Shown: in pieces, positions 9,519 through 59,817 of the stretch
Layout of the letters: each line of letters starts with the position of its first letter
Numbering within the stretch: position 1 is the stretch's first letter
From: Monocercomonoides exilis PA203
Taxonomy: Eukaryota; Protista; Preaxostyla
DNA: 64,000 nucleotides
Direction: 5' to 3'
Assembly (NCBI GenBank): GCA_001643675.2
Contig: LSRY02000001.1
Location: 1,178,001-1,242,000, forward strand
The notes under the pieces: model-generated
What the model saw: the letters and a program-made list of their open reading frames with translations, nothing else
Told to the model about the DNA's origin: nothing
Databases searched by the model: none
Made by a program: the position numbers and the translations under genes

Positions 9519-9837
9519 TTGCTGCTTCTCCTAAATCTTTATCGAACACGAGTTTTGAAATGAGTGATATGGCTGAACGTGTCAACTCAATATCGAATAA
9601 AAATTGTCTAAATCATTCAAAGAAATTTGCTAACAAATAAGCCTTTCCCCCAAATTCTCTACTCGTTCGGGCATCCAGTTCCATCAGGAAAGCCTGCTAA
9701 TTTGCCAAATAAAGAATATCCAAAAGAATACACTATCCACGTCGTCTTCCACATGCTCCATTTCAATTCAATGGTTAATCTGTTGTCAATGTTGTCTCTC
9801 TCTGCTGTTCTGAAATAAAACTGTTCACCTCTCTGTC

Positions 9838-10125
9838 TTACCATAACTTTGCTGCCATGTACTGTCCCGGTGGAAGCGTTGCACCCGCTTGAGTCATTCC
9901 TATTCCAGGCTTCAAACAATAATTGCTGTGATTCCAGATTATGCAACGCGTCATTAACTTGTACAAGAGCTGACTCCACACCTGCCCTCTCCAATTCGGT
10001 AGGAGCAGAATTGCTCTCGCTTTCTCTGCTGCTATCTTCCGAAGTGTCGGAAGCAAAAGCGGAATTGGAGGATGTGCCCAAACTATCTCCTGACTCCACT
10101 TCCATGCGAGACAGTCTTCGCACAT
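9838..10125 (-). pseudogene. DIRS-type N6-adenine methyltransferase-like domain
   Basis: DCLAWKWSQEIVWAHPPIPLLLPTLRKI..EKARAILLLPNWRGQVW matches the Dam-like module that follows RNase H in DIRS1 elements. Confidence 0.75.
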
Positions 10126-10249
10126 GTGGCTTCCTTGTACGCACCACCTTCTCAGTTTGTGGTTTCATCTTGATGCGAATGCGAAGATGGCAGGTTGCAT
10201 TTTCATTTTTCGCAGAACTTCTTCTATCACTTTCGTTTTTTATTTTGTA

Positions 10250-11880
10250 GTCTCCCACTCGCTCCAGACGAGATTGAGCGTCTGCTTCTATATTGTTTGC
10301 TCCCGGAATATGAACTGCTTTCACTACTAGTTGTTCCTTCGTCATAAGGCTGTAAATCCTCTTTAATAGACATCTCAGAATTCTTCCTGCTCCTCAACGA
10401 TTGATGTTGAAAACTGCTGACTTGTTGTCCGATCTGATCAGCAGGCGATTCATTTTATGTTCTGACTGTCACGCTGAATGATATGTGGGAGACAAACTTC
10501 TTTTGAGCAATTTGCAGAATTGCTCTCTCAGCTGTTGGCGATGCATCCGTTGTTAATATAAACTGCCAATGAAGCAACAAGTTGAGCCTGTGTATCTGGA
10601 TGTGGAATAGACGGGTTTGCAAGAACTGAATTTGTACACAGACATTGTGACTGAATCGGAATGATCCACTACATCCTGCCTTCTTTATTGCATTGGATAA
10701 AACTTCGCAAAGCTTATTTATATTGGGGAAAATACGGACTTTCAAGCTTTTTTTGAACAAAGCATGAAAAAATAGTTTCTATTCTAACATATTTAAACTT
10801 AACCAGATTTCAAAATAAATTCGATTTTCATATTTGCAGGCAAATATCATTGATATAATAACATTATGTTTTGCAACCTCAAACGAATTTCAAAAATTAA
10901 TCCATTTATTTCAAATTTGTTGATCACAAAAAATCATCTTTGATACATAATTTTTCAATGAAAATGCCTAAAGTCAAATATTTTGTCCCACATGCAGTAT
11001 GGTATCCATCACAACAAATCTGAATGAACTGTTTCATCCCACAAATCCTGAAAAATGCCTGATTCTCATTTGCACGTTTCTCAATGCAATTTTTGGCCAT
11101 CTTTTGCACATTGCGCACACGTTCAACCTCCTCTTCTGTTCCAAGCAAACACTCATCTGGTTCGTATTTCATTCCCATCCTAGAAATGTGAATGCCAGCA
11201 TGGGATACGTCACGCTCTTCTCCATGTTGATGATGATACACAACGTTTCGAACCACTGATCAATCTCTCATTTTATTTTTGTAAATTCTTCTTCATCTTT
11301 TTTAGTGAGGAGTACGTTATCGATAAAAGAAACACAACGAACGTTCCATCCATTTCTCATTTTCTTTACTGCCTCCAACACGACCTTTGCAAAGATGCGA
11401 GGAGCATTTTTCATTCCGAATGGCATGCATTCGAATTCGATGTTCTTGTCATAGAGCTTTTATGAAAGGAAAGGGATGAATATTTCGCTCACTGGAATCT
11501 TAAATTGTGCTTTAAAAGTGTCTGGTAATGTTGAAAAGTCTTCTTTTTTTTTAAGCTTCTCGAATGTGCACAAGTCTTCCATCTTGAAATGAGTATCCTT
11601 TACGCTGAATTCAGAGGGACGCAGTCCAAGGCTTGGAGGTATTTTCCGTTCTTCTTGTGAATGAAGAACAGGTTGCTGAGATATTTGACAACCAATTTCT
11701 TTTGATCCCTTTGAATTCTGGCTTGAACTCCTTCCTTCACCTTGCGTGAGCATTCTTCTCACTCTGTCTCCGTCAAATGAATCCTTCCCATCCGCAACTT
11801 CATTTTCCAGCATTAATCTTTCCTGTTTCCGTTTCCACACAGGCTCGACTCCGTTGGAAATTAATCTTTTCACTTGCATG
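10250..11880 (-). pseudogene. Reverse transcriptase / RNase H of the DIRS element, interrupted by a MITE
   Basis: MPFG motif, YxDD box degenerated to FIDN, RNase H TDAS / SDN / N..AD..SR motifs. Several frameshifts. Confidence 0.8.
10724..10990. mobile_element. ~270-bp MITE-like repeat, copy B, nested in the DIRS pol region
   Basis: Direct-orientation homolog of 3483-3750. Imperfect TIRs TGGGGAAAATACGGACTTT / AAAGTCAAATATTTTGTCCCA. It is an AT-rich block splitting the RT-RNase H coding sequence. Confidence 0.75.
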
Positions 11881-14800
11881 TGTATTCATGACTGGAGGTA
11901 ATTTTTCGTTCAATCTCTGACGATCCAATCAATTGCACCTTCTGGGAAGTTAACTCCTCAGCTGAAAGGATTTTGAATATGTTCATGTTTTTACCCCTGA
12001 TATAGACACAGCTATCGATTATCCGAGTATTGGGTTTTACACAGATTCCTCTTCTGAAAAAAAAGATGCTTCACTGCGAGATTCGTCCTCACGAACGGTT
12101 TCTTCTCCTTCTCCTGATCGTTTAATTTGAATGTGCATGTTTTATTATATCCTCATGGAAATCTGAAAAAGGAGGATCATCCATTTCTTCTCTATATGCC
12201 TTCGCAGCAGCGAAACCCTGACGTCCTGCCACTCTCGTTATTCTGCTTTCCAGTAATGCTTCCGTTACCAGAGTGAGCGCATCCTAAATTGGAGTCCTCG
12301 CGTCTTCGCGTGCTGAGTCTCTCGTAAATAACAAGGCCTTAATGGAAAAGCAGAGCTTTTTTTTAATTTGTTCCCCTGCTTTATCCAGGGAATCTGATGC
12401 CCACTTGGATGTAAATTCGGGCTTACGAATTGAAGAAGGGTTGAACGGAGCCGGGGTTGTTAAATAATTGTATTCAATTGTTCTGCAACATCTCTTTTCC
12501 CGACCGGAATGTCAAAAATAATGTGAGATAAAACGCCACCAAAGAAATCTGCAGCTTCTCTTTCTAGGATTTCTGAAATTCAATATTCTTTGTCACTGTT
12601 TCTTTATTCACCTTGTGACTGTGAAGAAGACTGCGGGATAAAAAAAACGGTTCTGGCTGAGTGAATTGCAAATTTAAACTCGGAGGAAGAAGAAAATTTT
12701 CTTGGGACGGAAAAGAAGCCCTGGAGCGGGACTGAAAGATTGCATCACAGGTTGTTGTCACAGAGATTTGAATTCTTGATATTGCTACGAGGCAAATGCA
12801 TTTATGTTTTGTGTGTGTTTATCAAATAATTTGTTATCGACTGTTTTCTTTATTAAAAGGGCATGCTTCCATAACAGAGGAATTATTAATTCATCAATAA
12901 TTCTTGCCAATAAATTATATTGTGCTTGATAATTCAAAAATGATCAAAAATAAATAAAACATTTTTTCTAAAATGAGTATAAATATTAAATTTTTTTCAA
13001 AAAATAATAAATCCATATCATTTTTGCAAGTGGTCAAATACAAATATATACAAGATCTCGATATTGATGTTTTTCATTGAACTTCTGTAACGTTTCAAAA
13101 AAAAATTGAAACAATGACAAATTGTTTAACAATTTTTTTGTTGTTTTGTTAAAAAATGAAAATTTTCCGTTTCCACGATTTTTTGATTAAACAAAAATAT
13201 AAAAAACGAATTGACAGACAGTGAAAAAAATAAATAAAAAATATTGAATTTCAAATCTTGACGATCGAGCTCCCGATAATTTTTTTGTTATTGACTGTAT
13301 ATTTCAGTTGAGGTATTTTTTTTACAAAGATTTGTCAGTGAATGTCATTGACGATCACTGACAATAAAGACTCTAACTGATATTTCATATGCAAGAATCG
13401 AATATCTTTCAAAGTGCTAAATATAACATTCAAAAGTTTTCGAAATTGATTGTTTTATTTTGCAATAATTTTATTTTGTTTTGTATTTTTTTTGTTTTTT
13501 TAGAATTATATGAAATTACATCTTGTCATATTACAGATGCTTAATCAAAATTATTAAAACAAATATTATTTTTCAAAATATGATGTTTTCAGTGACTTTT
13601 TGAAATTTCATTTGAAATGAACGATTCAAACAAATCTTCATCAAACAACGAGAAAAAGAAAAAGAAAATTTTCCTTTATAAATTGAAAGAAATAATCAGT
13701 TAATTATTTAAAACCTTTCATAATAAATGAGTTCAATCAAAAACATTTCCATATCAGTAATTTTTCTTTCATCATTTACACCAAAAATAATTCTAATTCG
13801 AAAAAAAAAATAACTCATTTTCGAAAATTTATTAATTCGATTTCGAAAAAGAATAAATCGGTTTCGAAATGAAAATTTTTTTGATTTGAGGAATAAATAA
13901 CTTGTTTTTTGTGTTTTTAATTCTTTTAATTTTTAACTCATCTATTCACTAAGTTAATCAATATTTCAAAAATGTCGTTTTTTCATAAAAAATCATTCCT
14001 CAAAATTGAAAATTTGATAATTGAAGTCATTTCAAAAAGAAAACGAACACATTTTTATATCAAAAATCTATGTTTTTCTTATTTCCACGAAAAAAACCGA
14101 AAAAATAAAGTTTAATTTTTTCGAACATTTTGTAATTCAATAAATGAGTCAAAAATTCCATCTTTCAATCAGGTTAATCAAAAAATGAATTATTCTTTAA
14201 TAAATTTATCTTTTGAGTGATGATTTTTAAAATTGTCAAAAAACAAAAAATTATTTAATAATTATATTTGCAGTTAAAATAACACTTTTCTTTGAGTAAT
14301 AATTTTTGATATGTTAATGAATATCTTTAAATATTCTGAAATCTATTCTCGAGATATATTTTGCATTTAAGAAATGAATGAATATAAAAATCGAAACATT
14401 ATTCTTTGAAATTGATTTGGGTGATTTTTTTTGATATCATAAAAAATTACGAAGTTTGATCATAAAAAATTTCCATTAAGGGTGGGGTTGATTAGAAAAA
14501 TGAAAGTGATGATCTCACGAATATATTGCAAAAATTATTATTATAATTATTTATTTGTTGATTTAAATTTGTTTCCAATTGTTTTTATCACAAATTTTGA
14601 AAAAAGTATTAATTTTTATTCAAAAAATTACAAAACTGAAGCAAACAGTACGAAACAGATGTTCACTGGTATTTGAAGCATGAAAACAATAATAACAATA
14701 TGAAATCAATAATTTTTTAATATGAAAATTAGTTTTATGATGTTATTACAAAGAAATTATTTAATTAATTTTGTAGATCTTAAAACATTTGTGAAAAATA

Positions 14801-18852: not shown

Positions 18853-21800
18853 ACACATCTTCTCTTCAGCAGTCCAACCTGCTCAACACACAAGCGCGCT
18901 TTGCTTTTAACTTCACATTCTTTTTTGTTATCCATTCATATCCACTCTCCCTGCCAGCCAGCCTTATTCTTCCTCTGTCCTCTCTTCAGTCACTTCCACA
19001 TAACTTTCATCATCTTCTTCTTCTTCTCATTCTCCTTTCATAGATCCTTCATTTTTTTATGATTTTGTTCTGTTTGATACGAATATCTTCCCTTTCACAC
19101 TGCGTTTTTCTTCCTCATTCCTCAATTTTCTTTCACAAGCTCGTTTTTTAAGAAGAATAAGTTTTTTGTTCCAGTAACTGGTCACTGCTGCTCACTTTCT
19201 GCAATGTTCCTGTTTCCTACCACACCCTTCTCTCAACCAATCTCCATTTCGCATTTCCTTCTCACCAACCGCTCCTTTCCCTCTTTCTCATTCCCCGTTT
19301 TTTTAATCACTTTGCATGCGCAACATGCTTCTGATACTCCTCTCACTGCTTCTCAAACTATTTCTATCTCGCTTCCCCAGATGCTTCTGCACCATCTCTT
19401 CTTTTCCCTCCAATATGGCCGTGTATGAAAATCCACTGAATGAATATCTCAAAGTCTAGCAATCCCAACATGCACCAAACAAGGAAAAAAATAAATAAAT
19501 AAATACTCAAATAAAAAACAAACAAATAAAAAGAAATAAAAAACAAAATAAGAAATAAAATAAACGATCATATAAATTAATTAATGAGATATATTTTTTT
19601 CTTTTCAAAAACCCATTTCACTCATTCACATACCTGGCATTGTTGCCAACAAGCTTAGTGAAATAAAATTTGTATTTCAATATGTTCCTTCCTTGTTCTC
19701 CTTTCTTTCTCTGATTAATCCTTTCTCAAAATGCTCAGCCCGATTCAGCCTTCCCTCTGTCCTATCAAACGCTCTTGCTCCTCGACAAGCAAACACCTCG
19801 TATTTGTAATCTCATTATCGCACATAGATAGAAATCGCACTTGCAGCCACGACTCACCAGAAAAACTTTCAGACCCATCTTCCTTTTCTGTTTATGTCTC
19901 TGATAACGATTTGCTCAACAACCTTATCATGGATGTTTCTCACAACAAATCCTCTTCAAAATATCTTCTTCTCTCAAATAAACGCTATCCTCGTTCATAT
20001 AATTTCTCTTCTTCTTTCTCCTCCTTGTGCCTCTGCTGCTGCGACTGTTTCTGCTCCATTGGCTGCTTGTTCCAAAAGCTTCAAATTAAAATCATCAAAT
20101 GAAATCACTTTTCTTATTCTTCACGTTAATGGAAATAAATAAATTAACATCCTGCATCTTTTCAAGAATATTTACAACTGCAAACCCTGCTACCTTCCAG
20201 AAGCGCTCAAAAAGCCATCTTTTTTCATTCCTTTCTAGTCTGAATGCATTTAGTTTAATTGAGAAAAAACCATTGATAAAAAAACAATTGTGATTAGAAA
20301 AAATCAAACAAAAAAATACACATTAAATAAGGCAATGTCATATTCGATGTTCCAATTCAATTTTCTCATTCTTTTCCTTCCGCTAAATATTCATCGATAG
20401 ATCTTTTTTGAAAGAATACTTTTGCCATCAGAACTTATGAGCATTGATTGAAAAATTCTACAAGCGCAAAGGCTTTTGTTTTTTAGCGCAATCCTTCCGT
20501 TAAATCGATGCACCTGCTAGAATTGAAAGCCTTTTCTGTGACTGCATTTCTCTGTTCCATGCGTTTGAAACCAGATCTTCCAAAAAAATACTTCCTTAAC
20601 ATCCATCCGTCTATCAGTCCTTTCTTTCTGTCCAACCCTTCCTTCTCCTCTCTCTTTTGGCTTTTTCGTCCAATTCACTTAAAGAATCTGGATGCAACAA
20701 TTTTTACTCATTTCTGCAGACATGCATGTTCATCGTTAGACACTTTATAAAGCTTCGGACAAAGTTTGGAGCTGCTGAAGCTTCCAAAAGTATCTCCGGC
20801 TTGTCAACAAGGCATATTGAGAACTCGTTGATAAGGCAGCTCACGATGTTCACCATATGCATCCTCTTTGGGAGAGATGCACATCCAGAAACTACTCAGC
20901 ATCGATGACTTACTTTTTGTTTAGGTTCAGTCAGCTTCCTGAATAGATAAAGAACGACTATTAACACAGCGCTATTCTGCACTTTCTCCTTGTTAGTCAA
21001 GCTGGTCAAACTCATCTTATCTTTCTTCGTTTCCTATTCGTTCTGCAAGATTGAGCTTATTCCTTTGCTATTCTACCGCTAAGCCTCCACATATAAATAA
21101 GACCTATCAGCTAACTTCTCCAGTGCGCTTTCAGGATTCTGCTCACTTTCTCATTAAAAGATGTCTGAAGTGCATCTGCGTATATGTTGACAGCTCAACA
21201 AACACATAGTTTATGAAATTCAGAGCTCTTGTTTAAACTATATCTTGCATTTTGACTCTTCATTCTTTTTGACTTTTTTTCTTCTTGTGTAATTTCGCAA
21301 GCTAGTTGAATAATTAGACCTGGAAAAACGGAGATGTGTTCTTTTTGTTCATTTTAAGATGACTTTTCTGATCTCTTCATCTCCCGCAAAATGGCTCTGA
21401 ATGATTTCTTCTTTAAAGTTGCTGAGAGAATATTTCAAAGCAAACTTTCATTGTAAACCGCCACGGGTGACAATAGCGATCAAATATAAAGCAGACGATG
21501 CAAAAAAGCTTCATGGTATCTTTACTCCAGTCATTCCCAAAAATGAAAGCATTAATTGCAGCTAAATCGAATCTCGCATCAGTTTGTCGATCCACAGATA
21601 ATTAACAATGATCGCCTCAAAGAAGCTGTCGGTCAGCTATAAGTAAACAATTGTTTGGATTAAATTATCATGTATTCTTAGGTTGGCTTCGGTGGTCTGA
21701 TTCAATACACAGTGGAGCAGGAAAAAGTTATTCGAAATGACTGTCAGTTCAATTGATATATGTATAAGCAACAACTTGTGCCTCTTTACGAATGTTTTAG

Positions 21801-21949
21801 ATTCAATAATGAAGAAGAGGTGTAGAATGAAATATTTGTAATAAAATGCGTGTGCAGCAAAGGAAAATAAGAGAACATCGTGAAACAACAGGAATAATAG
21901 AAGAAGAAGAAAATATAAATCTCTGAAGAACTTTGTTATATCTCAAAAC

Positions 21950-22160
21950 GAAGTTTCTTTTTGATAATTTTGATATATTTTATTTCACCAAAATCCCATT
22001 TCAAATTTCATTTTTTCTTTTGATCTGCAATTTGCAGAAATGCTTTTTTGATGTGTCAAGATAATATCTATATAATGTTGAAGTGTTTCATGAGGTTAAT
22101 AACGATTTCTGCAAATTTCCACGTTATAAAAAAGTTTTCATGATCATTGAGATCATTTTT
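21950..22160. repeat. Left arm of an imperfect ~200-bp inverted repeat pairing with 27460-27675
   Basis: CCCATTTCAAATTTCATTTTTTC and AACGATTTCTGCAAATTTCCA have near reverse complements at ~27598-27623 and ~27496-27516. Confidence 0.65.
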
Positions 22161-22933
22161 ATACAAAAAAATTTTTGTTGATCTGTTTTGAAAAATTCAT
22201 GATGAATTTTTTTGAGTTTGTTGGTTTTCTATATATGACATTGCTATATGGAAGAATTAAAAATGATTTCAATTTGAAAAATGCTTGTTTATTCAAATTT
22301 GAGTTTTTTTCGAAATAGAAAAAAGATCAGTGAAATGAAAAAATATACGTTAAAAAATAACAATCGTTTTGCAATCAAAATGACATAAATAAACAAAAAG
22401 CACTTTATGATATTAATCATTTAAAAAATTGAAAACAGTTAGAAATTTTCTAATCAGATTCAATAACTTTCAAAAAAACATAATTCTATCACATAATCAT
22501 TGAACATTCACAAAATATCAACCAAATGTCAACAATTTTGAACAATAAAAGATATAAGAAAAAACAATACTATAACAACAAATTCACAGTATCAAATACA
22601 ATTCCTAGCAAAAAAGAACACTTATATAAAAAGTTCAAAAACTGACTTGTCTATTTTCCCTCTGTTTTCCATCCACTCTCCCCTTTCTGATATTTCTCTA
22701 ACTTTGACTCAAAAAGATCAAATCCAACAAAGAAAAAAGACAGACACAATGATAAAACATCACTTCACACTCTCAACAACTCTCCCTTCCAAAAACCTCA
22801 CTCAAAGATCAATGAATTCCCTCACAACTCTCTCTATTAGTGAATCTCGATATATACATAAAAATTCGGGACAATAACCAATTTAATTATAGGGACATTA
22901 TAGGGACAAAAAGCACAAGAAAACAACCGGATT

Positions 22934-23071
22934 CTAACTGTTGTGTACCTGGGAGGCTGTTCGTCGTATCCAGGTCCGGATATTGCAGCCCGAAGGCTGC
23001 AATATCAAATACGAACAGTCATGTCCAGCACCCTTCCGATAGAGTACCAGCTAAGCATACACAACAACTAG
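22934..23071 (-). ncRNA. Putative structured RNA element (~140 nt) directly 3' of the USP-transposase stop codon
   Basis: Four stems readable by eye, including a perfect 12-bp hairpin with a cUUCGg loop (22979-23006). Wobbles are G-U only on the minus strand. GC-rich island in AT-rich surroundings. Confidence 0.6.
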
Positions 23072-23075
23072 TTTC

Positions 23076-26000
23076 TTAATAGGGGACACCAAAAGAACAA
23101 TTTTGAGATTCATTAAAAGAAGAAGAGTCAAGAAGAAGCTCAAATCTCCTTGAAAGAAGATCCTGAGAAGATTGAGAAAGAAGAGAAGAGTTTGATGATG
23201 TGATATCAGAGTGAAATGACTTCCTTGTTCGTTGAACCTTTTCTTTCATTGTCGAAGATTCGAGGGCAACCAGAGAGCGTTGAGGAAGATATCCAACAGC
23301 TGAAGCACAGACAAATGAGCCTTTGCGCTCAAAATACAAGTAATCTTTCATGTGGGGAACTGACAATGATGGCCATGAGACTTGTTGAGATGGTACATAT
23401 TCTTCAAAGTACCTCTCATGCTCAAAGTTATTGACAGATGTCGAAGATGGTGAAGAGTTTGATGATGATGTTGAGAAGTTGTTCGATTGTGAAGTTGAAG
23501 AAGCTGATGTCGAATTATTCATATTGTTTTCGAAGAAGTTGATTAAGTCATGAAGTGTTGTGATGTGTTCAGTCGAAAGATTGTTGTCAATTGCATTAAC
23601 TAACGCACCAAATTCACTATCACAAATATTCTTTCCATGGTGCTCAGCGAAGAAGTTGAGTTGAGTATTTTTCTTTTTCAGGAGTTTCGATTGTTTGGAG
23701 AGGATGAAGTAAAGAAGGAAGCGATTTCGGTTGTGTGGACCCGAATCGCAGAAGAACTTAAAAGTGTGAGTGTCTGAAAAGAAGTGTCTTTTGATCACAG
23801 ATTCCAGACACTCAATAACAAATCTGTGATCATTTGAAAGGCAATCGGAGAAGAAGTTGAAAGTTCGTTTTATTTTTTGATTTTTTATTTTTTGAAGAGA
23901 GATGATTGTGAATTGAGAGACTTGTTGATAATTGAAGAATTCTTGTTGAAGTTGATTTTTTCTTATGGGGAGTTTCCATTTCTCTTTGAAGTCGAAGACG
24001 AAGACTGCCTCTCCCTCTTTAAGATTATCAACAGTTGATTGATAATGTTTTCGTTGCATTTCTGCAACAAGACGATGTTGTCGAAGAAGTTTTAAAATGT
24101 GAAACTCAGCAGAAGAAAGTCCATTTTTGTTTTGTGAAGATTTTAATTTGTTTTCCAGATAGTTGAGTTTCTCGCACATTCCGCAGAGATCTGTGCGCCT
24201 TTTTGCTTTGGAGAAGTTGGTGGTGAGTTTGTAGAAGTGAGATAATGAAACTTTGATGTTTGTTTCATCTGTAAACTCTTTCCATAATTTCGTCTTGGGC
24301 TTGAAGATTAACCTCTTTTCATTGGGAGAAAAGATGCCCGTTTTCTTTCTTTTTTCTTTCAGTGCTTCCAATCCATAACTTGTTGAAATTGACGAAGAGA
24401 GTGGAGGAATGGAAGTTGTTCGATGAGGTGGAGTGATGAATGCGGATGACAGAGTAGTTGTTATTGTTGGAGTTAATGTTGTTGTTGACGATGATGATGA
24501 GTTATCTGAAGTGTTTAAATTTGATGTTTCTGAAGAAGAAGATGAACCACCAAATTGAATAGTTGAAAGCGTTGGTCTTGTTTTTTCTTTTGTGTAGAAT
24601 GAAAGTGAAGGAGTGTAACCTTGAGCATAAAGATCCTTCCATGCCTTTATCCAATTTTTTTTCTCCAGTTCAGTCACGCCAGCATCATTGCAAACATTCC
24701 ATTTGAAGCGATTTCCGCTCTTTCTTTTCACCACAGCTATGTAATGCCCGTTTTGTTGATCCATTCGCTTATACAGTATCTGCCCAATAAGATGATAAAT
24801 AATAATCTCCTTATTGCTCTCTTTATTATGTTGAATGTTTTCTTCTGAATACCCTTTGATAAACGTTCGCTGGTTAGCACGATCAGTTTCAATAAGCAAC
24901 ATGCTTGATGGCTCAGAGCTGGACGTGTCAGTGCATTCGTGACAGAGAGCTAGCACCTCTGGAAATGCAGCCATTTCCTCCCATCGTGAAGTGCAGCACT
25001 TCTCTTTGCATTCATTGCAATAAACGGTGTTCTTTCCATCCAATATCTCTGTTGCAAAGAGAGATGATAGACCTTTGTGAGGAGAAGATGAATTAATTAC
25101 CACATTGTTGCTAATTTCATCGAATTGATTTGAAACTTTTTGGCATTGTTGGCATTTCAAATGAGTGATCAAAACAGGATTGAACGTATCTTTATTTATC
25201 AGCTCATCTTTTTGAAGAAGTTGGTGAAGATTGTCAAATGCCTCAACCACGTTTTGCTGCTGTCTACTGCCATATCCACAAAAGTCTTCCCATTTGTTGA
25301 TCAGTGATGGGACCCACGAACGCACTGCCATTCCATCTTTGGCAAGTTGTTTGCAAACACTCAATACACGAGAAGATAAATTGTTTTTTGATGATGTGGT
25401 TTTTATTATTGATTGTTTTTGTGAAGTGATTGAAGACATGCATTGAAGAAGAGAGGAAAGATAGCAAGTGTTTCCAAGATTTTGCAAGCCTTTAACTGTT
25501 TTTGATGACGAATTGGAATCTTCATTCTTGTTCGAAAATATTGATGAAGAAGGAGATTGAATTGCGGGAAGAAAATCAGTTGTGTTGCTGTTAGACATGA
25601 TTTGAGGAGAATGATTATTAAGTGTTTCATCTCTTTCATCTGTTTGTGTATTATATTGAGAAGAAGAAGAGTTAATTTCTTTTGAAAATGATGAAAGAAG
25701 ATTTTGGAATGCTTGAGGAGGAATAAGAGTGGGTGAAGTGGCATATTCGACTAATTGATCACTCACACACACATCATCGTTGCGAAAGGATGCTGAAGAT
25801 TTTTCGATACAAGAAGAATTTTTTGATTCTTCTTGTTGCTTTTTGGAAGAAGAGGAAGATGAGGAAGATGAGGAAGATGAGGAAGTGGATGACGATTGTT
25901 TTGTTTTGAAGAATTTGTGAATTGGGATTGGAGAAGGAGATGAGTGACGTTTTTGATGTGATTTATTTGTTTTTCTTTTTGTTGAATCCCTTTCTCTCCT

Positions 26001-26863
26001 AATTGGAGTGCTGATTGGAGTATCAACAGCTTGAGATGGAGAAGAATTTGGTGAAGAAGAATCATTTTCTAAAATAGTTTTTAAATTTTTATTTTGCTGA
26101 GATGATGAAGAAGATGAAGAAGATTGTTTTCTTTTTGAAGAAGAGTTTTCTGTAATTATTTCTTCTTCCCAAGCCTCTTCGTCTATATATCTCGTAAAGT
26201 CCGGCTCAGCTCGCTGCTTTTTCTTTGCAGATTGAAGAGAAGTTGACGCTTCTGTTGAATGGGCCAACATCCAGTTGTTGCCCTTTTCCCAGTCCTGTTC
26301 AATTAAGCCTTAAAAAAATAGAGAAAATTATTCAAAAAAATTATAAATAAAAACAAACCACTTTTGCAAGACGGAAGATGAGGTTTTTGAGGAGGAATGA
26401 TAAATCCTTGGTTTTTCTTCAGTGTTTGCTTCGCATAAATAAATTTTCCCTCTGTCACATCATATCCATAGTCTTGCAAATCGGATAATGATGTATTGCG
26501 AGATAGCGCTTGAAGCATTGTTGTTTGAGTGTGCAACGGAGCGTTGTTGTACACCACAGACAAGTCTTCCAGCAGCTTAATGTGATATTCTGTTTCAAAA
26601 AAAAAATAAATAATAAACAAATATAAATAAAAAAAAAAAAAAAAACAAAAGAAGAAATAACATTTCTAACACAATACAAAAAAATAAAAAACCAAACCAT
26701 TCAAAGACTTCAGTAAATCATTAATTACTGAAGATGATTGCCTATAGTTGTAAAAGAGATAGACAAGCAATGAATCCACGTCATCTCCACCTATACGTTT
26801 TATTTCGTTCCAAATAACTTTGCATCGAGAATTAAGAGTTGATTGAGGTTTAGAAAAAGACAT
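23076..26863 (-). CDS. Sola2-like DDD transposase with an embedded ubiquitin-specific protease (USP/peptidase C19) domain; 3 exons, ~1209 aa
   Basis: Exons 26863-26698, 26589-26359 and 26308-23076 join in frame through two phase-1 GT-AG introns (3630 nt). USP: GLQNLGNTCY, QQNVVEAF, CQQC/CNEC, GHYIAVVK, W..CND (~25490-24590). Transposase: TDLCGMC...H, VFDFKEKW, QEFFNYQQVS, SND..FV, CDSGPHNRN, FFAEHHGKNICDSEFG. Confidence 0.85.
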
Positions 26864-27459
26864 TTTTATGTTGAAAGTATTTTAATAATGGTTTGATGAT
26901 ATTAGAAATTAATATGCTGTTGTTTGAATTAATAATACTTTTTTTTTATTTTTTATTTTTTTTTATTTTTTTTTTTTTTGGTTTTGTGTTGATTCTGAGA
27001 AAAATTGACAAATAAAATATTCAAGGAGCTTCCAAAAATGAATTTTTATTGTTCAAAATTATCCTTCGAAAATTTGCCAACAAGTCAAAACTGACATAAC
27101 TCAAATTTCTTTTTCCACATTATCTGAGAATAACAATAACATCAAACAACAAAATATGATTTTTTTAAAAAATAGTAAAAATGTCATACATATAACTTAA
27201 AATAAGCATTTCTATCTCAATCAAAATTTTAATATATATAACAGTTTTTTTGTGTTTATTAAAAAAATGACTTTCGTTAAAATTGGATTTTTTTTTAATA
27301 TTAATTTTTCTGGAAAATGATAAGTTTTTTCAAAACATTCTTTTTTCTATAATGACGAATAATAACCATTGAAAATATATATCATCCATTGAAATTAAAA
27401 AAATAAAGAAAATTTGTGAAAAAATGTTTCAAAAAATATTCATTCTGAAAATTGTTCAA

Positions 27460-27675
27460 TTTGATCTTATTGATCATTGAAAGATTTTAATTACTTGGAA
27501 ATTTGCAGAAATCGTTTTTGCATTTATGAATCTCTTCTTTATATCATTTATACCATTATGAGCTAATAAATAATCAATTCTGCAAATTCCCGATCAACGA
27601 AAAAATGAAAATTTGAAATGGGTTTATAACAAGAAAAATAAAATTTGATTATCTTATGAAAAACTTCGTTTATTG
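27460..27675. repeat. Right arm of the imperfect inverted repeat pairing with 21950-22160
   Basis: GGAAATTTGCAGAAATCGTT and GAAAAAATGAAAATTTGAAATGGG reverse-complement the left arm. Confidence 0.65.
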
Positions 27676-28099
27676 ATAAGCAAAATTCAAATATAATTCA
27701 TGTCTTCTTTAATGCTTCTTCTTCCTCAACTTTTTCAATCCAAACTGTTCTCCATTTATGACAAATAATTTGATGAATCTTTCGTCATATTTAACCTCCA
27801 CTACTTCTGTTTTTTCTCTTTTCTCTCCTTTTTCGTTTTTCTGATCCAATGATGTTATCCTCCCCTTCTTTCTTCTCCTTCTGCTTCTACTTCTTCTGCT
27901 TCTACTTCTCTTTCTGCTTTTCCTTCAACTGCTCTGCATGTTCTGTCAGTTTAACCACAAAGCGAAGTCATTTCAGCAAAATCATAAAAAATAATCAAAG
28001 TGTTTTTCCTCTTTTTGCTTCGTACATGCACACTTGCAGTGTTGTGCATGTGATTGAAATGACAAAGAGAAAAGAAATGGTTATACAAAGAAATTCAAT

Positions 28100-31870
<3,771 letters not shown>

Positions 31871-33445: not shown

Positions 33446-34256
33446 TCAGCGAGAAAGATGAAGAAGAAAAAGCGGGAAATAAAGAAAAGAAGAAAAAGAA
33501 GAAAGAAGAGGAAGTGCATGATGAGTGGAATGAATTTCTTTGGCGATTAAGGAGCGATAGAGGATGTATGTGGAATGAGAATGTGAAAGAAACAATAATG
33601 GAAAATTTTGGATGAAGAACAAAGGGGATGGAGAAGAAAGTTTGAACGCCAAATAATCAGGAGAATAGAGAGAGATAACGAATTTGAATCAGTTGTTATT
33701 GTTGGAAATATATTCTTTTCCACAGTTCTTTCTTTTGTTTTGCTGTTGAAGCTGAGCTACAAAGCTGGAATGATGATTTTGTGATGTTAAATCCAAAGAA
33801 ATAAAAGATAACGAACAGTTCTCTTTTTTTGAAAATCAAAAAAATAATAATTTTAATAAAATTCCAAACTTTTCCAATGTTTTTTGTCTTTATTTTACAA
33901 TTGTTGGTATTGTTCAGTAAATCTTGAAACTTCTATTTCTTTCTGAAGTTTTATTTGTTTGTTTTTGGTTCAATTTCTTATAACTTCATCAAAAAATTCT
34001 ATTTCACCAAAAGCTAGAAAAAGGTGTGAATTATATATATATTACAAATATATATTACAGAAATTAAAGCTAAATATTTACAAAAAAATCAATTAAACTC
34101 TTTGATCAATAAATACCACAATAGAATTTATTTTTTCGATTTTTGATCTTTTTTTATGATATCAAAAAAAATCACCCATTTATTGTTTTTCGAAATCAAA
34201 TTAAAATATATGAATTCGAATAATTTATTTTCGATTTTGAATTAATCATTATAAAA

Positions 34257-34938
34257 GAAAGATATAGTATATCAGCAATAGATACATCTCTATTAGGTTA
34301 ATCAATATTATCGATTTATGAATATCTACTGGGTGTTATCATCTTGTGTAATAAGTTGGTAGGCAATGGTAATAATATAGAGATCGATGATTATTGCTGA
34401 TACTCTCAGGGGTTTCTCATGATTAGATATTCGGTGATGTTCTATAAAGAAGGAGTTATTGATAAGTGTAATCGAGATATATCTATAGCTGATATGCAAT
34501 ATCTCCAAGGAGGAAAATTAGCTAAAAGATTAACTGGAAGATTAACGAAAGTTATGTTCAAGTTGGTAAATTAATGGTGAAACTGTGTGAAAATTGGTGT
34601 TTTCGTTGATGAAATTGTTGATGAAAAACATGAGTTGAACATGTATCGAACGTTGATGAAATCGTTGACATTATCGTGAGTGAAATCGCAAATAAAAATA
34701 ATTGATTTTGTTTTTTGTTTTATAGCAAATGGGTCTGAAGAAGATATACGCAACTGTGAAAGAAGCTAAAGCGGCTCAACAAAAACAGATTAAACAGTTT
34801 CAGGAAAAGCGTAAGGAAGAAACTAAGTATTACAACGAACATGTATCTGAGAAACAGAATAAGTTGATAAAGATATTGAGGAGAAAGCTTATCGAAGATG
34901 ATGAGCTGTTAGATGAGTTGATGGAAAAAGTTAATGGT
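34257..34938. repeat. Left terminal inverted repeat (~682 bp)
   Basis: Reverse complement of 38038-38719. The mismatches I noticed are within the outermost ~10 bp. Confidence 0.95.
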
Positions 34939-34980
34939 TATTGCCTGCACAGGCTTGATTGGGATAAATGTGTTTATTGA
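34729..34980 (+). CDS. Small basic coiled-coil protein encoded in the TIR (copy 1)
   Basis: MGLKKIYATVKEAKAAQQKQIKQF..., identical to 38005..38247 up to KVNG; the C-termini differ beyond the TIR boundary. Confidence 0.55.
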   Translation: MGLKKIYATVKEAKAAQQKQIKQFQEKRKEETKYYNEHVSEKQNKLIKILRRKLIEDDELLDELMEKVNGYCLHRLDWDKCVY

Positions 34981-35479
34981 TGAAATATAACTGACTGAAC
35001 ACGTTTGTTGTGTCGTAGATTATATCAAACATTAGTCACGATTGCATTATGGTTGATTGCCAACATCTTTATTTTTGATTGGAAAAAGTGTCAACCCGTG
35101 TCCAGGACACCGAATTGTGGTAATATCAATGACTCAGCTGAAGGGGAATATTTGATTAAATCTCCGTGCCAAAAGCGTAAACCGGTAAACCGGTAAACCG
35201 GTAAACCTGATCTTTTAATTTCAACTGAAAAGAGCTGCCAACATGCCATTTCTGCCAACATAAGCATTTTCCCCCTAATTTGGCATGATTTCGAGGGTTC
35301 TTACTCATTTTCGATTGTGTTGTCATTCTGCCACATTGCCACATGGAATAGTTGGTGGAACACATCAGTTGTATTGTTTTTGTTTGAATGATTCCAAAAA
35401 TACGAATATGTTTAGTTGATTTCCACAGAACAGTCCATGTCATCTTCTCTTCGTTTGAGGAGTTGTTCAGACTCTGGCT

Positions 35480-37750
35480 TGAGTTTGAAACACCACACTT
35501 GATTTCCTTTTCCACCTACTCGTATTCTCTCACATCTGTCTTTGATTGCTGGTTGGAATGAGCGATCGTTCTTGTATTAAGCTGGTTTGAAACATAGTGC
35601 ACCAGAACATCTCCACACTTCTTTGAGTTTATTGTCATGCTCCTGACAGAACAAATCGATGACAGAGAGTGATGCTGCAATGATATCTTCCTTTGCCTCC
35701 GTTGTTGGAATAGCCCTTATGTTGAAATTGGAGAGATCTTTGCTGAGGAAATAGCAGAGAAGTTGTTCATAGAATTCATCGTAGAAAGAGTTTGTGAAAT
35801 CCTTGAAGAGTGTGAGATTGTTCTTATATTTTGAGTTACAATCACAAACAACATATTTTCTGTCACCAATCTCAATCTTTACAGGGTGAGTGTGATTTGT
35901 CACAAATATGAAATTAGCAACGTTCTCAGTTGTTCTTCTTGGCTGATTCTTCTTATTTATTCCGATTGTTGAATCTGCAATTATACTCTTCAATACGTCA
36001 AAGTTAGCTGTTCGATCATCTCCAACGTTTTTCAACTCATGAAGTACAATGAACATTTTCCCTTTGAAGATGGAGTTGAACTGTCTCGTTTGTTCTGCAA
36101 TCTCTGTGACATTTAGACATGAATATCCTGTCAACAGTTTAGCAAGGACATATGTCCAGACATTCTTTCCAATTCCTTGTAAACCTTTGAGAACAAGTGA
36201 TGTTTCTGCTTTTTGACCAGGATTTTGAACAATTGACGCAATCCAACAGAGGATGTGTTGACAGAGTTCATCGTTGTTGTTGGCGATAACTTCTTGTGTA
36301 AAATCAAGGAATGGTTTGATGATTTCGTCATTTTGTTCGTTTGCCGTTTGGTATTTGAACCCATGGAACAGAGAGAATATTTGAGGGTTATCTGAGAAGA
36401 ACTTCACCCCATCAATCGATAGAACGTGTGAGTATTGTTCGAAAGCTGTCTCAACTGTGAGAGTCTTTTTGTCATCATGCCACAGTTTTATTGTTTTGAA
36501 CAGTTCGCACATTGCTGATTTTGTCTTGAATGTAATTGAATAACAGGAGGTGTGAATTTCAAACTCTTTCACATTGAATTCCATCCTTGCTTCATCAAAT
36601 CTTAGAACTTTTGTTAGATCTTCAGTGACTTCAGACAGCGAGGATAATTGCTTTCGACAAGCTTAATCCCTGATTTCAGAGAACGAGCACGATGAGTTGA
36701 GATCTATTTCATGAACAGTGATCTCTCGTGCAGGTTCTTCCTTTTGCTCATTCTCTTTTCTGAGGAGTGGAATGATTATATCGTTGAAACATGTTGGATT
36801 CCATCCCTTGACAATCTTTTGAAGAACAAATGGATGTGACTTGTGATCCCTGTGCCTGTTTTGTTTCTCTTCATAGTGAGTGATTGCATTTGCTGTCAGA
36901 GCAGCTGTTTCTCTGATTTGATTGAAAAGAAAATCAATTGAATTGTTGTTGAAACCATTAATATTGATGAGAGGATTGAGAGCTGCAAATAACGGTAAAA
37001 GAGTTAACTCAGAATCAAGTGACAAAGAATCTGTGTCGTTATGTATTTCAACATCTTTGAGTCCATCTACAAGAGCAAGAGCGACAGTTGGAGACATATC
37101 AACAATTCCATCTTTTGTGAGAAGATTGTGTGGTTCAGCTGCAATTATCGCTAATGTATTCTCTGTTTTGAGGTTCTTACCGAATATGTCAAGAACACTC
37201 TCAAGTGATGAAAGATCTCTGAGCTCTCTGTAATTGTTGAGGGGAATGTATTTGGTGATGATTCTCTCGCCATCTTTCATCTCTCTGTATGAAGTTTCAG
37301 CTTGAACAACAAGCCTCTGTTTTCCATCTCCAATTCCTGCAAAAATGTCGATATTGAACTCTGGACTCGTTATCATCTTGGTTTGTGACGAACATTTATG
37401 GGGATAACCACACAGCTCACAATAAAAATGAAGACCACCATGAACTGTTTGAACAAGTCCTTCATTTCGGGGGAGTTTCTCGAAAATGGAAATCCTGATG
37501 GTTTTCGTTTTTGTTCAGCTTGGAGGGATTTGTTGATATCAACATCAACGACAAAAAGATCCTCACATGTGCTGATATCGACAGCTGTTCCAGTGTGTCG
37601 TTGGCCCTGCTTCTTGTCAGAATATTTCTTGCAGTCGAACAAATCAACAAGGTGATCTTTCATTAGTTCTCCAAGCGTTTGCTGTTCTGTTGACATTGAA
37701 TCAATTAATTGTTGGATAATGTTGTCAGAGTCTGTTTGGGGGTTTGTCAT
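35480..37750 (-). pseudogene. Prim-Pol (AEP bifunctional primase/polymerase) fused to a D5-like SF3 helicase, ~750 aa, disrupted
   Basis: From ATG 37750: LFVVDVD, then after one frameshift (~37505) VQTVHGGLHFY and NIDIF. In-frame TAA at 36663. Helicase Walker A LKGLQGIGKN, Walker B IVLHEL, motif C FIFVTNH, then DRKY. Second in-frame TAA at 35577. Confidence 0.85.
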
Positions 37751-38004
37751 TTTAGAAAAAAAAAAAATAAATATTTTTGAAACAGATTTATTTTTTTTAC
37801 CTGAATTTACAGGGAAGATGACGTTGAGGTTAATGTCGAAAATGAACGAGGAACAGTTAATTTTCACATTAAATGTATTTTGCCCACTTTGCTCACTTTG
37901 CCCGTTTGCACACATAATTTCAAGAATAGGATTGACCCAGTCCACCCGGTCCAAGTGAAAAAAACGGAGATAAAACTCAATATTTCCCAGCCACAACATC
38001 CGAA

Positions 38005-38247
38005 TCAACTACTCAGTTGACCTGGTCCAGGCAAATGACCATTAACTTTTTCCATCAACTCATCTAACAGCTCATCATCTTCGATAAGCTTTCTCCTCAA
38101 TATCTTTATCAACTTATTCTGTTTCTCAGATACATGTTCGTTGTAATACTTAGTTTCTTCCTTACGCTTTTCCTGAAACTGTTTAATCTGTTTTTGTTGA
38201 GCCGCTTTAGCTTCTTTCACAGTTGCGTATATCTTCTTCAGACCCAT
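38005..38247 (-). CDS. Small basic coiled-coil protein encoded in the TIR (copy 2)
   Basis: Duplicate of 34729..34980 inside the right TIR, pointing inward. Confidence 0.55.
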   Translation of the reverse strand: MGLKKIYATVKEAKAAQQKQIKQFQEKRKEETKYYNEHVSEKQNKLIKILRRKLIEDDELLDELMEKVNGHLPGPGQLSS

Positions 38248-38719
38248 TTGCTATAAAACAAAAAACAAAATCAATTATTTTTATTTGCGATTTCACTCAC
38301 GATAATGTCAACGATTTCATCAACGTTCGATACATGTTCAACTCATGTTTTTCATCAACAATTTCATCAACGAAAACACCAATTTTCACACAGTTTCACC
38401 ATTAATTTACCAACTTGAACATAACTTTCGTTAATCTTCCAGTTAATCTTTTAGCTAATTTTCCTCCTTGGAGATATTGCATATCAGCTATAGATATATC
38501 TCGATTACACTTATCAATAACTCCTTCTTTATAGAACATCACCGAATATCTAATCATGAGAAACCCCTGAGAGTATCAGCAATAATCATCGATCTCTATA
38601 TTATTACCATTGCCTACCAACTTATTACACAAGATGATAACACCCAGTAGATATTCATAAATCGATAATATTGATTAACCTAATAGAGATGTATCTATTG
38701 CTGATATACCATATCTCTC
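38038..38719. repeat. Right terminal inverted repeat (~682 bp)
   Basis: Reverse complement of 34257-34938. Confidence 0.95.
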
Positions 38720-39232
38720 AAAATGATTTTATTTTTTCCGAAATTTTAATGTTGATTTTCGAAAATGAATTATTTTTGGTGTATTTGTTAAAAATACTTT
38801 CAACTGAAAGTTACATATCAGTTTCTCTTTCAATTTTTTTCTTTTTCTGAATATTTTTTTAAAAACAATAAGTTTCCAATTATTTCAAATTGAAAACTTT
38901 AAAAACTTCTTTCATTTTTTTGAAAGATTATCGATCAATCATTTACACAATTTATCATTCATATTTGAGAAACAAAAGGGAAAATTTGAATACAACATAA
39001 AAATACAAATTGAGAAAAAAATTAAAGAAAGAGAGAAAAATATTTCACGTTTTCTTTCATAAAGAATAACAATATCACAATCATGAATAATTGAGGATTT
39101 AGAACAAAAATCACACTTACGCTTCCAAAATAACCATAATAAATTAATATAAAAGCAAAAATACTGATTATCAAGCTCTTTAAACATTTTATGATATAAA
39201 ATTTTTTAAGCATAAATAGAAAATAATTAACA

Positions 39233-56412: not shown

Positions 56413-57233
56413 CAGCAGAAAAAGAAAACTGAAATTCTTCTTCTGAACCCTTAATAAAAAAACAAGAAGTGAACATTTTTAGCCCATAACTTTGGATTCG
56501 TTAATGGAAAAACATGATTCTTGCTTTCTCCAATCAGGATATACAGCAGACATGTCATTCTGAATGTTGAGAAAATCATTGAATCTTCAGAAAAATCAAT
56601 CAATATTCATAAATGGAGAACAAGAATAATTCAAACTTATCAAAAAATAGCAAGAAAAATCAAATTGCAAAAATGTGTCAAACAAATTGTGCTATTGCTA
56701 TGTTATTATAATCCAATGGAAATGAATGAATGAAGAAAATGTGTGAAGAATCTGTTTTATCTGAACTCTTTTTATTTTTTGAACAAAATTATTTAACTTC
56801 AAACTTCAATTATAGTACTTCTATATAGTTAATAAAATAATTCATAAGCTTGAAAATTTTTGGAGATCAAATACTTTTCATCATTTCAAAAAGTTTTATA
56901 AATTTGAAAGTTTGAAGTGTGGTTAATATTTTCAAAACAAAACATTGAAAAATATAGGTGATTCTTTTTGATTTCATATTTTTTCTATCAAATTTTTCGA
57001 ATTAACAGTTTATCTCTAACACTTTGAAATTAATCTAATGTGTTTATTAAAACCATAAATGAACTTTCTCTGTCTTTCTTTAACTACATGCTTTTGAAAG
57101 ACAATAATGTGAAAACATGTGACATATTTTTGTAATTCAATTGCAAATAACTGTGAATGAGAAATGCACACATTCACCGAAAAAAGGTATGATTTCAAAA
57201 AGAATCACCCATATGGCATCATTCTCTCCTTTG

Positions 57234-57597: not shown

Positions 57598-59817
57598 CAG
57601 TCAGAGGCAAATCCTGGGACAAGGACAAAACGCGGGACACTAAAGTCAAGAATAACTATTTTAAATGTTAATTTCAAACAATTCCAAATCAAAAATCAAT
57701 TTTTGATAAATTATTATAATTTCATCCTCTGAATGCATGTCAAAATAATAGTCTCTTCAATAAGAAATTATATCAAATAGAATGATCAAACTTCCATAAA
57801 TTATTTGAAAAAAGCAAACGCATCATCACTAGTCCCTTACAAAAAATTATTTTCGATAAAGATTTCTGTGGAGTTACTTAGGCTCTCTGAAAAAGTTGAA
57901 AAAGTTGATTATCTTCTGAAACAAGATTGAATCATTCCTTCAGATTTTGTGAAAGATAAAATCATTTCTCATTTTTCCATCTGCAGGCATATTGCTTCAA
58001 AAAAAGCAAAGCGTGATACTCAGCATGTAGGCAGACCGGGGCTATTCAATAAAGAAGAAATCGAGGAAATCGAAGATAGTGCAATTGCTCAAATATCATC
58101 CACAAACAAATTGACAGTTTCAGACATTATCAGATTCGTGTGTTGTTTTGTGTTTATTTTATTTTATAATTGTTCATTTTTGATAGTCAGAAAATGTGAT
58201 GATGAAGAAAAAGAAAGAATAGACATAAACGCCTGAAGTCAGGATAATCAGCAAAAAATGAACATGCAAGTTGATAAAGAAAAGTGGATACCTGAAATTA
58301 ATAAAATCAACTTTTATTGATCTTCATCGCATTCAAGCATCTGCAATTGAAAATATGAGGAATTGGTTTTCGTTGTTGATAAATGAAATTAATGGTTATC
58401 TGATTTCATCAGATTTAATTGTCAATATGGAAGAAACTGGCATCTTGATGAAGCAGTCGGACGAGGAAATAGTTGTCGCAAAAGAAACTCAACAAACTCT
58501 TTTTCCAGATGTCCAGCGAAGAAAGAATGAAACATTATTTTTTTCTATTTTTGCAGATGGAATGTCACTTGATCCAATCATGCTATGGCTTTCTCAGACC
58601 ATTTCCGAGAATCCAAAGGAATTAAAGAATAATAGAATTAACTGTTTGGCAAATCGTACAGGCTGGATGACAAGAAGAGATTTTGAAAAGATTATGATCG
58701 AAATATTATTGCCAAAAATAAATGAGAAAAGAGTTGAGCTTCATGGACAGTCTTTTTATGCTTTGATTACACTTGATGGGCATTCCTCTCGCCTAAGTTT
58801 TCCAGTGATATCTTGGTGCAGAGATCATTTAATCCATTTATTGATTCTTCCATCACATACAACACATCTAACTCAGCCGCTGGATAGGTTTGTATTCGCG
58901 CATTTCAAAAACAGCCCAAAAAAGAGTGTTCTCGGTTCCTTCTGATTCGTCAATTTTTTCTTACAGAAAATCATTAATACCTGCAGTATCAGAAGTGGTA
59001 AATAACTCTCTCTCTCCAAGAATAATGAGAAAGTCATTTGAAGCTTTAGGAATTATCCCATTTGACTTTTCTTCCGTATGTTAGTATTTTCATAAAAACA
59101 ACGAAGCCTTTTCGATGACAGAAAAAGCGGTGAATAATTCTTCACATTCAAGCAGTATCAGAATGAAATTAATAACAGGAGACAAAATTTTCGAAGGCTT
59201 TTCCATTCAATTTGAGAAAAAAAAAGAAAAGTTTTCCAAACAGCTCAGCAACAAAGCAAGACGTTGCAATTTCTGAGGTGAAAGAATCATCTTATGTTAA
59301 TGACAAAAGCTCCATTATTTCTGTCCCTGTTGAAAACATTAACTTTCAAAACCATGAAAAGAAAGCAATAATTCGCAATGATGTTTTAACGAACAATCTG
59401 ATAATTCAATGGATCGAAAGGAGCAACCAGATACATCAGAAGAAGAGGTTTCAATTCTTTGTGAAAAAAGGAAAAGAAAGCTTTCTTCAGATAGCGAATT
59501 GGGATCCATCTTCAATTACAGTTAAAAATATTTTCTGTGAGAAGCAAATTATTTGTTCATTGCATGTTAAAACATGATTCAACGTTATTAAACAGTGTTT
59601 TGTTTTCAGTTGATTTTTATATGCCTTTCTTTTTAAACTGCTATTTTGAATGCAAATTCAATTCAGGAAATTTTATTTGGCTTGTTCGATCCACCTTAAT
59701 TCACGAAAAACTGGATAGTCAGAATATTTTTCCATTTTAAAGTGTTGAATTGTGACAAAAAAAAGCTGAATGGAATATCCTAGGTTTTGTCCTTGTCCCG
59801 GGATTTGTCCCAGACTA
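57598..59817 (+). mobile_element. pogo-like DD35D DNA transposon, degenerate, ~40-bp TIRs
   Basis: Left TA|CAGTCAGAGGCAAATCCTGGGACAAGGACAAAAC; right GTTTTGTCCTTGTCCCGGGATTTGTCCCAGACTA. ORF 58271..58945 has NMEETG (first D lost), IFADG, GWMT, LDGHSSR...TTHLTQPLD with 35-aa spacing. Stops and frameshifts present. Confidence 0.9.

Follow-up and report, generated by a model that had tools for sequence, protein, structure and literature searches.

A small element of Monocercomonoides exilis with long terminal inverted repeats, a broken D5-like primase-helicase gene and a degenerate palindrome at each end

Results

Organization of the element

The DNA analyzed here is a stretch of 64,000 nucleotides from Monocercomonoides exilis, referred to as the window, to which all positions refer. 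It contains a mobile element of 4,461 bp, in which two long terminal inverted repeats (TIRs) enclose a single large gene. The main features are as follows.

34258-38718, no strand: whole element, delimited by the TIR pair and by contigs of other copies that turn unlike the window past 38718
34257-34942, plus strand: left long TIR, 686 nt, from inverted-repeat comparison with the right arm
38034-38719, minus strand: right long TIR, 686 nt, from inverted-repeat comparison with the left arm
34258-34506, plus strand: fold-back unit at the left terminus, a degenerate palindrome with its centre near 34382, from alignment, folding and shuffles
38470-38718, minus strand: fold-back unit at the right terminus, mirroring the left one, with its outer arm at 38681-38716 and its inner arm at 38472-38507, placed by TIR identity
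35412-37750, minus strand: D5-like primase-helicase gene broken at three places, from Pfam matches, reading frames and stops
34729-34980, plus strand: small open reading frame (ORF), left copy, 83 aa, lysine-rich and helical, crossing the inner TIR boundary
38005-38247, minus strand: right copy of the small ORF (80 aa), on the strand of the replicase gene and upstream of it

The TIR arms differ at three positions (34259, 34266 and 34939) and are separated by 3,091 nt. The element may extend one base further on each side, to 34257 and 38719, where TIR complementarity reaches its limit. The sole target duplication that fits is AAAA, with the ends placed at 34257 and 38719, and it is not significant in AT-rich DNA; there is no TA duplication. 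The element is integrated in the chromosome: its neighbours include ubiquitin hydrolase and kinase-domain ORFs that are open over 1,077 and 1,979 aa in the standard code, which identifies the surrounding sequence as chromosomal DNA. An Rfam scan produced no matches at E-values up to 0.1 and a tRNA scan produced no genes. In the non-coding interval that separates the left TIR from the 3' end of the gene, the motif GTAAACCG is repeated 3.9 times (35177-35207).

The primase-helicase gene and its relatives

Between the TIRs lies one large minus-strand gene that is now in three pieces. A frame change at about 37500-37511 splits the archaeo-eukaryotic primase (AEP) domain. The second break is an in-frame TAA at 36663-36665, where paralogues carry Gln or Lys, and the third an in-frame TAA at 35577-35579, where the paralogue P0002 has Glu; a C at position 35579, found in nearly every other copy, likewise makes this codon Glu. 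A ciliate code, in which TAA would be read as Gln and join the helicase ORFs, was considered and rejected: the standard code leaves neighbouring ORFs of 1,077-2,574 aa open, and in paralogues the stop positions are occupied by codons for Gln, Lys or Glu.

The C-terminal piece (35577-36662) matches superfamily 3 (SF3) helicases of the D5/DUF5906 type (PF19263, E-value 3.8e-18; PF05272, VapE-like, 5.5e-9), a helicase type also named in an earlier note on this DNA. The N-terminal and middle piece has relatives in 97 representative protein clusters. In an alignment of 22 relatives, residues D87, D89 and H126 are invariant, which we take to be the DxD and His motifs of AEP primases. A family profile matches the helicase region of NrS-1 (2.2e-36) and the pRN1 ORF904 prim-pol (8.9e-4). 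The structural model of one relative (P0031, pLDDT 82.5) matches NrS-1, African swine fever virus (ASFV) PrimPol, MPXV E5, vaccinia D5, PriRep1 and the SaPI5 primase-helicase, and aligns over its full length with ASFV PrimPol, MPXV E5 and vaccinia D5. An AlphaFold model of the paralogue P0004, built from nine sequences, was unusable (pLDDT 37.8). Taken from domain matches and the model, the gene is a predicted AEP primase and SF3 helicase of the replication-initiator type.

No recombinase, integrase, transposase, nickase or resolvase was recognized when four ORF pieces of the element were scanned with Pfam and three with PHROGs. Capsid families were likewise absent from these ORFs, helicase families being the sole matches, and Pfam scanning of 23 relatives of the gene found no recombinase domain. 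The 83-aa ORF gave nothing above threshold in Pfam and PHROGs, and its best score in a protein atlas (0.82) is at chance level. It has one homologue, M. exilis MONOS_17995 (83 aa, 86% identity), whose C-terminus is also resembled by that of the right small ORF.

Searching with the C-terminal helicase piece retrieved 27 proteins, one of them the window's own. Ten come from M. exilis (75-87% identity), and six of these bear the name 'putative Poxvirus D5 protein'; the rest comprise a Histomonas meleagridis protein and 15 unnamed proteins from metagenomes. The annotated paralogues are mostly truncated or deleted. No relative was found in a prokaryote genome collection, and metagenome and viral sequences supplied 30 and 7 loci, respectively. 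Checks for TIRs at 11 relatives' loci and for local inverted repeats at 8 found weak AT-rich matches alone; the metagenome contigs are probably too short to contain the ends. In nine of ten clusters looked up among the 97, the longest contig carrying the proteins measures just 2.4-9.2 kb, which would be compatible with small elements of one gene whose repeats cause assemblies to break. Four gut-metagenome contigs (L004-L007) carry a helicase-only relative at 40% identity; one of them (L005, 9,634 nt) has dense genes, some with weak phage tail and transposase matches. The helicase domain occurs outside protist elements too.

The terminal fold-back unit

The outer 249 bp of each TIR form an imperfect palindrome bounded by an inverted repeat of its own. 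The smaller features of the unit, and of the TIR sequence that adjoins it, are listed below for the left end.

34260-34295, plus strand: outer 36-nt arm, 31/36 identical to the reverse complement of 34469-34504
34469-34504, minus strand: inner 36-nt arm, holding the perfect 10-nt palindrome AGATATATCT at 34475-34484
34392-34402, minus strand: third, partial copy of the arm core, TATCAGCAATA, an exact 11-mer near the unit centre
34528-34546, plus strand: GATTAAC twice, direct, 12 nt apart, mirrored in the right TIR
34605-34661, plus strand: GTTGATGAAA three times, direct, iteron-like, mirrored in the right TIR

The earlier note had claimed that a fold-back unit of about 245 bp opens each long TIR, and the alignments bear this out. 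The 31-nt match that it described, between 34260-34290 and the reverse complement of 34474-34504, is present at 27 of 31 positions. It extends over the 36-nt arms (E 1.3e-4 in a self-comparison of 801 nt) and further to 39 of 48 positions (34260-34307 against 34457-34504; blastn E 4.7e-7 against the 64-kb window). When the terminal 63 nt were compared with the reverse complement of the remaining TIR, the score was 51, compared to 18.1 +/- 2.5 for shuffles, none of 500 reaching the observed value. The third partial copy that had been pointed out, TATTGCTGATA at 34392-34402, is indeed an exact reverse copy of 34270-34280, although taken alone it is no more than weakly significant (E 0.12); the 7-mer TATCAGC is found at three places in the unit and at 16 in the whole window. 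The mirror unit described at 38472-38716 is there as well, since the 686-nt TIR arms differ at just the three positions given above. A second copy of the unit was not found elsewhere in the 64-kb window, and its terminal sequence is not shared by other transposon-like sequences of the window.

The symmetry is concentrated at the edges. Folded as single-stranded DNA, 34257-34510 reaches -27.1 kcal/mol, compared to -17.8 +/- 3.0 for shuffles (z -3.09; 1 of 200 shuffles equal), and this signal is due to the two arms: the 149-nt interior alone gives a z of -0.81, with 42 of 200 shuffles folding equally well. A global alignment of one half of the interior against the other scores 11, compared to 2.7 +/- 2.6 for shuffles (3 of 500 reach it). 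On the basis of this weak signal, the unit as a whole is described as a degenerate palindrome with its centre near 34382.

The hexamer AGATAT is enriched in the 249-bp unit, with 6 occurrences observed and 0.26 expected from the window (Poisson p 3.7e-7; about 8e-4 after correction for approximately 2,080 hexamers). The occurrences stand in mirror order, with forward copies at 34260, 34425 and 34475 and reverse copies at 34322, 34479 and 34499. The pair at 34475/34479 makes up the 10-nt palindrome of the inner arm. The conserved islands of the unit are the two inverted 36-bp arms, a mirrored AGATAT pair and the central partial copy of the arm core. Inward of the unit, a period-12 array occupies 38432-38464, and the iteron-like motif, present three times in the TIR and seven times in the whole window, lies in a stretch whose length varies among copies, with joints skipping 36, 71, 92 or 136 nt. 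With its three iteron-like repeats of variable copy number, its two GATTAAC motifs and the small ORF, this part of the TIR looks like a control region.

Other copies of the family

Other copies were studied through the contigs of four runs (X1-X4) from one sample, mapped on 33900-38990 at 80% likeness. Of 791 variant rows and 41 joints, 40 and 15, respectively, supply the evidence on conservation, with the window copy as the single complete copy. Each run yielded between 577 and 5,853 contig pieces spread across the whole element, and the family is therefore multi-copy. In all four runs, contigs turn unlike the window right after 38718 (9, 8, 7 and 4 contigs). Their continuations disagree with each other, with a loose-end agreement of just 0.51-0.55, which makes 38718 a family-wide terminus that coincides with the outer arm.

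The earlier note had staked its structural claim on the internal symmetry being conserved across copies, and the contigs of other copies point to such conservation. Among the rows listed, the letter found in nearly all other contigs restores pairing at two places, 34498/38478 and 38685, the latter mirroring 34291. Majority letters thereby repair two of the five arm mismatches, and the family majority would stand at 33/36 if the remaining arm positions are unchanged. In addition, the joints 38506->34303 and 38676->34471 represent copies in which the outer arm resembles the inner arm of the window copy, and three X4 contigs on the outer arm carry the left context of the inner arm. Judged from these contig sequences, arm symmetry is kept in the family, and is better in its majority than in the window copy.

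Depth over the unit (bins of 1,086-7,161) shows no excess over the rest of the element (about 1,000-12,000). No flip/flop joint, in which the unit would be inverted, is among the best 15 of 41 joints, which are joints of contigs, not reads. Two contig records (7 and 27) match 38513-38716 alone (204 bp with 32 differences) and have unlike sequence on both sides, and four contigs share sequence just from 38617 outward. Several joints in the contigs of other copies link sequence just inside both TIRs, on opposite strands (34940/37916, 35023/38028 and 35076/37849, within 34943-35076 and 37849-38033 of the window). The inner TIR boundary therefore varies between copies, and older TIRs of the family were probably longer.

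The immediate flanks, 34212-34256 and 38733-38776, contain units of about 20 bp, TTTTCGAwwwTGAATTA, with a palindromic core, and 34219-34234 and 38759-38774 form an inverted match of 15/16. The landing site of the element may have been a minisatellite-like array. One joint, 34244->38756, skips 4,511 nt and was considered as an empty site. It was rejected because the flanks are a tandem-like array and the sides of the joint measure just 21-29 nt; we read it as a paralogous repeat rather than an excision.

A further repeat lies close to the element and outside it.

34084-34184, no strand: very abundant short repeat, delimited by loose ends at 34083/34084 and 34179/34184

In the bin 34070-34239 that covers it, summed contig depth reaches 21,710 in X1 and 29,156 in X2, about ten times that of the element. 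It is probably a highly abundant repeat of the genome, either satellite or similar to a miniature inverted-repeat transposable element (MITE). Partial copies occur in the window at 14418-14446 (29/29), 13788-13862 (76%) and 57188-57212.

Discussion

Interpretation of the terminal unit

We tentatively favor, at a probability somewhat short of even, the reading that the 249-bp unit is a cis-acting end module of paired predicted binding sites, serving as an origin or as an end-recognition site. Several observations together make this reading the best fit, namely the conserved islands in mirror order, their position exactly at the terminus, the adjoining iteron-like arrays, and the fact that the sole large gene of the element is of a replication-initiator type. 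The arm match that none of 500 shuffles equals, the enrichment of AGATAT, the pairing restored by majority letters in other copies and the terminus that these copies share also speak for it. An interior that folds at shuffle level and is weakly palindromic is likewise the pattern to be expected if sites are kept while spacers drift. The arms and AGATAT hexamers would be bound by a protein that recognizes the ends of the element. One candidate is the element's own primase-helicase, in which case the unit would be an origin at each end and two SF3 helicase rings might load head to head on it; the other candidate is a recombinase supplied in trans. The spacer of about 170 bp between the arms could be looped or merely tolerated. 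A related hypothesis has been published for polinton-like viruses (PLVs), whose inverted repeats are proposed to be an origin read by the adjacent primase-helicase (PMC11296320).

The window copy has a broken gene and yet almost identical TIRs, and was therefore probably propagated in trans or homogenized by gene conversion. In the former case, the proteins of an intact copy would act on its ends to copy or move it. Several points count against an end module. The predicted sites are inverted, in contrast to the direct sites of known two-site (IR/DR) transposon ends, and they lie about 210 bp apart, whereas the palindromic origin sites of papillomaviruses and polyomaviruses lie much closer together. 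No integrase or transposase was recognized that would account for the element's entry into the chromosome, and AAAA, the sole candidate target duplication, is not significant. Comparable repeats are not seen on the short metagenome contigs of distant relatives.

An unlikely alternative is that the unit is a relic with no present function. An ancestral head-to-head duplication of the terminal 120 bp or so, for example from fold-back repair of a broken end, would have left a palindrome that has been decaying since, and the arms would look best kept merely because the outer one is the true terminus. This would explain why the halves align weakly over the whole length, like an eroded full palindrome, and why the interior does not fold; the family is also possibly largely dead, given that most annotated paralogues are truncated or deleted. 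Against it, nothing would hold the inner arm at a likeness of 31-33/36 if just the outer one were in use. In addition, arm pairing is restored by the majority letters of other copies, and AGATAT hexamers are kept in mirror order away from the arms.

The earlier note had offered two mechanisms of its own, a composite of two MITE-like modules and hairpin telomeres. Neither gains support here, and both are weaker than the end-module reading. In the first, which we hold to be quite improbable, the 249-bp unit is a mobile mini-element with TIRs of 36-48 bp, two inverted copies bracket the gene, and a transposase encoded elsewhere moves either one unit or the whole element. In size and arm length the unit does resemble a MITE, the scanned ORFs of the element include no recombinase, and records 7 and 27 together with the four contigs from 38617 outward could be solo units. 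The inverted duplication nevertheless spans 686 nt, continuing for 438 bp past the unit and including an ORF, which a composite of two MITEs does not predict. The 64-kb window holds no second unit, and unit depth is no higher than that of the rest of the element, whereas a true short repeat 100 bp away stands at 21,710-29,156. Records 7 and 27 could equally belong to a diverged subfamily in which the inner TIR falls below the 80% threshold.

The second mechanism, a linear replicon with covalently closed or fold-back ends in which the 249-bp palindrome is the unfolded duplex of a hairpin and the arms serve for resolution, like the sites at poxvirus concatemer junctions, seems more doubtful than any other reading. 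Large DNA viruses with D5-type primase-helicases do have long TIRs with hairpin ends, the unit is palindromic in layout and sits exactly at the terminus, and relatives of the gene lie on contigs of a size compatible with small free replicons. Against it, just 39 of 48 nt pair at the edges and the interior is at shuffle level, so that no stable hairpin or cruciform would be possible; nor is there pairing along most of the length. The scanned ORF pieces hold no nickase of the HUH type or any other, and no resolvase, the unit is inverted in none of the best 15 of 41 joints, both ends of the window copy are in the same orientation, and this copy is chromosomal, within a contig of 2.7 Mb.

Comparison with known systems

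Among known systems, PLVs share the replicase type and the layout: they have long TIRs, a replicase of AEP primase and SF3 helicase beside the TIR, and many copies integrated in protist genomes, and the TIR-plus-replicase arrangement of the element matches what are termed PLV 'end modules' (PMC4642659, PMC11296320). PLVs are 14-40 kb in length (PMC12220804). At 4.46 kb the element is three to nine times smaller, with room just for the replicase and the 83-aa ORF. PLVs are also defined by major and minor capsid genes, and most have an integrase or tyrosine recombinase; none of these was found in the scanned ORFs of the element.

Transpovirons, the 7-kb linear episomes of mimiviruses, are likewise small, with long TIRs, one large helicase gene and no capsid. 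Their signature protein joins an SF1 helicase to an inactivated PolB (PMC5499653). The element differs in having an AEP primase and a D5-like SF3 helicase, and lacks the SF1-PolB feature. Transpovirons are, moreover, dependent on a giant virus, of which there is no sign for the element.

The ends of Tc1/mariner transposons of the IR/DR type (Sleeping Beauty, Tc3, Minos) are modules that span about 230-250 bp and carry one binding site of about 30 bp at either edge, the outer one being the terminus. Their sites are direct repeats, the target duplication is TA, and these transposons encode a DDE transposase. The element described here resembles them in this two-site geometry and differs by its inverted sites and the absence of a TA duplication and of a recognized transposase.

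Poxviruses, ASFV and chloroviruses combine a D5-type primase-helicase with long TIRs and hairpin ends. Together with parvoviruses, they resemble the element in that a palindrome lies at the very end, inside a longer TIR, and these nucleocytoplasmic large DNA viruses do so with a D5-type primase-helicase. The terminal palindromes of poxviruses, ASFV, chloroviruses and parvoviruses pair along nearly their whole length and exist in flip and flop forms, and parvoviruses need an HUH nickase. In the element just the edges pair, no flip/flop form is among the best 15 of 41 joints, and no HUH nickase was found in the scanned ORF pieces.

Significance

D5-type primase-helicases are known as replicases of giant viruses, virophages, PLVs and phage satellites. 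With many copies in the nuclear genome of an oxymonad, a 4.5-kb element that consists of no more than structured TIRs and a gene of this kind would present the replicase in its smallest eukaryotic context. Most likely, it is a new small member of the elements that combine TIRs with a primase-helicase, one with a palindromic end module. The 36-bp arm and the AGATAT hexamers also give a defined DNA target for tests of the published idea of the TIR as an origin. If the unit is instead a decayed duplication, it is a routine detail of transposon anatomy.

A broader proposal, which we consider speculative and improbable, is that such elements form an undescribed class of minimal eukaryotic replicon-transposons. 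These would be single-gene linear replicons with a D5-like primase-helicase between long TIRs, with end modules that act as both origin and telomere, shuttling between a free and a chromosomal state with no self-encoded recombinase, and widespread in gut protists. The 97 clusters of relatives, and the short contigs in nine of the ten looked up, are cited in its support.

Literature listings and selected passages contain no eukaryotic TIR element with just an AEP-SF3 helicase gene, which is not proof that none has been published. Approximately 35% of the M. exilis assembly is reported as unclassified repeats (PMC8767320). In both M. exilis genome papers (PMC8767320, PMC6759080), the terms poxvirus and inverted repeat do not appear; the former is also without the term virus, and the latter without viral, primase and mobile element.

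Other repeats of the window

The window contains several further repeats and transposon remnants. A fold-back with 323-nt arms (61320-61642 and 61903-62225; 90% complementary, 260 nt apart) is situated between fragments of a pogo-like DDE_1 transposase (58262-58945 and 62964-63998) and has ends that bear no relation to those of the D5 element. A 164-nt inverted pair (21992-22155 and 27462-27625, 72% complementary) surrounds the 1,077-aa ubiquitin hydrolase ORF and may be chance in AT-rich DNA. A direct repeat of at least 240 bp (3508-3749 and 10748-10990) is 90-94% alike between its copies, which are 7,241 nt apart, and has a partial inverted copy at 870-961. Finally, the ORF at 1675-2325 carries an ISXO2/IS1595-like (Merlin-type) transposase domain (E 8.4e-16).
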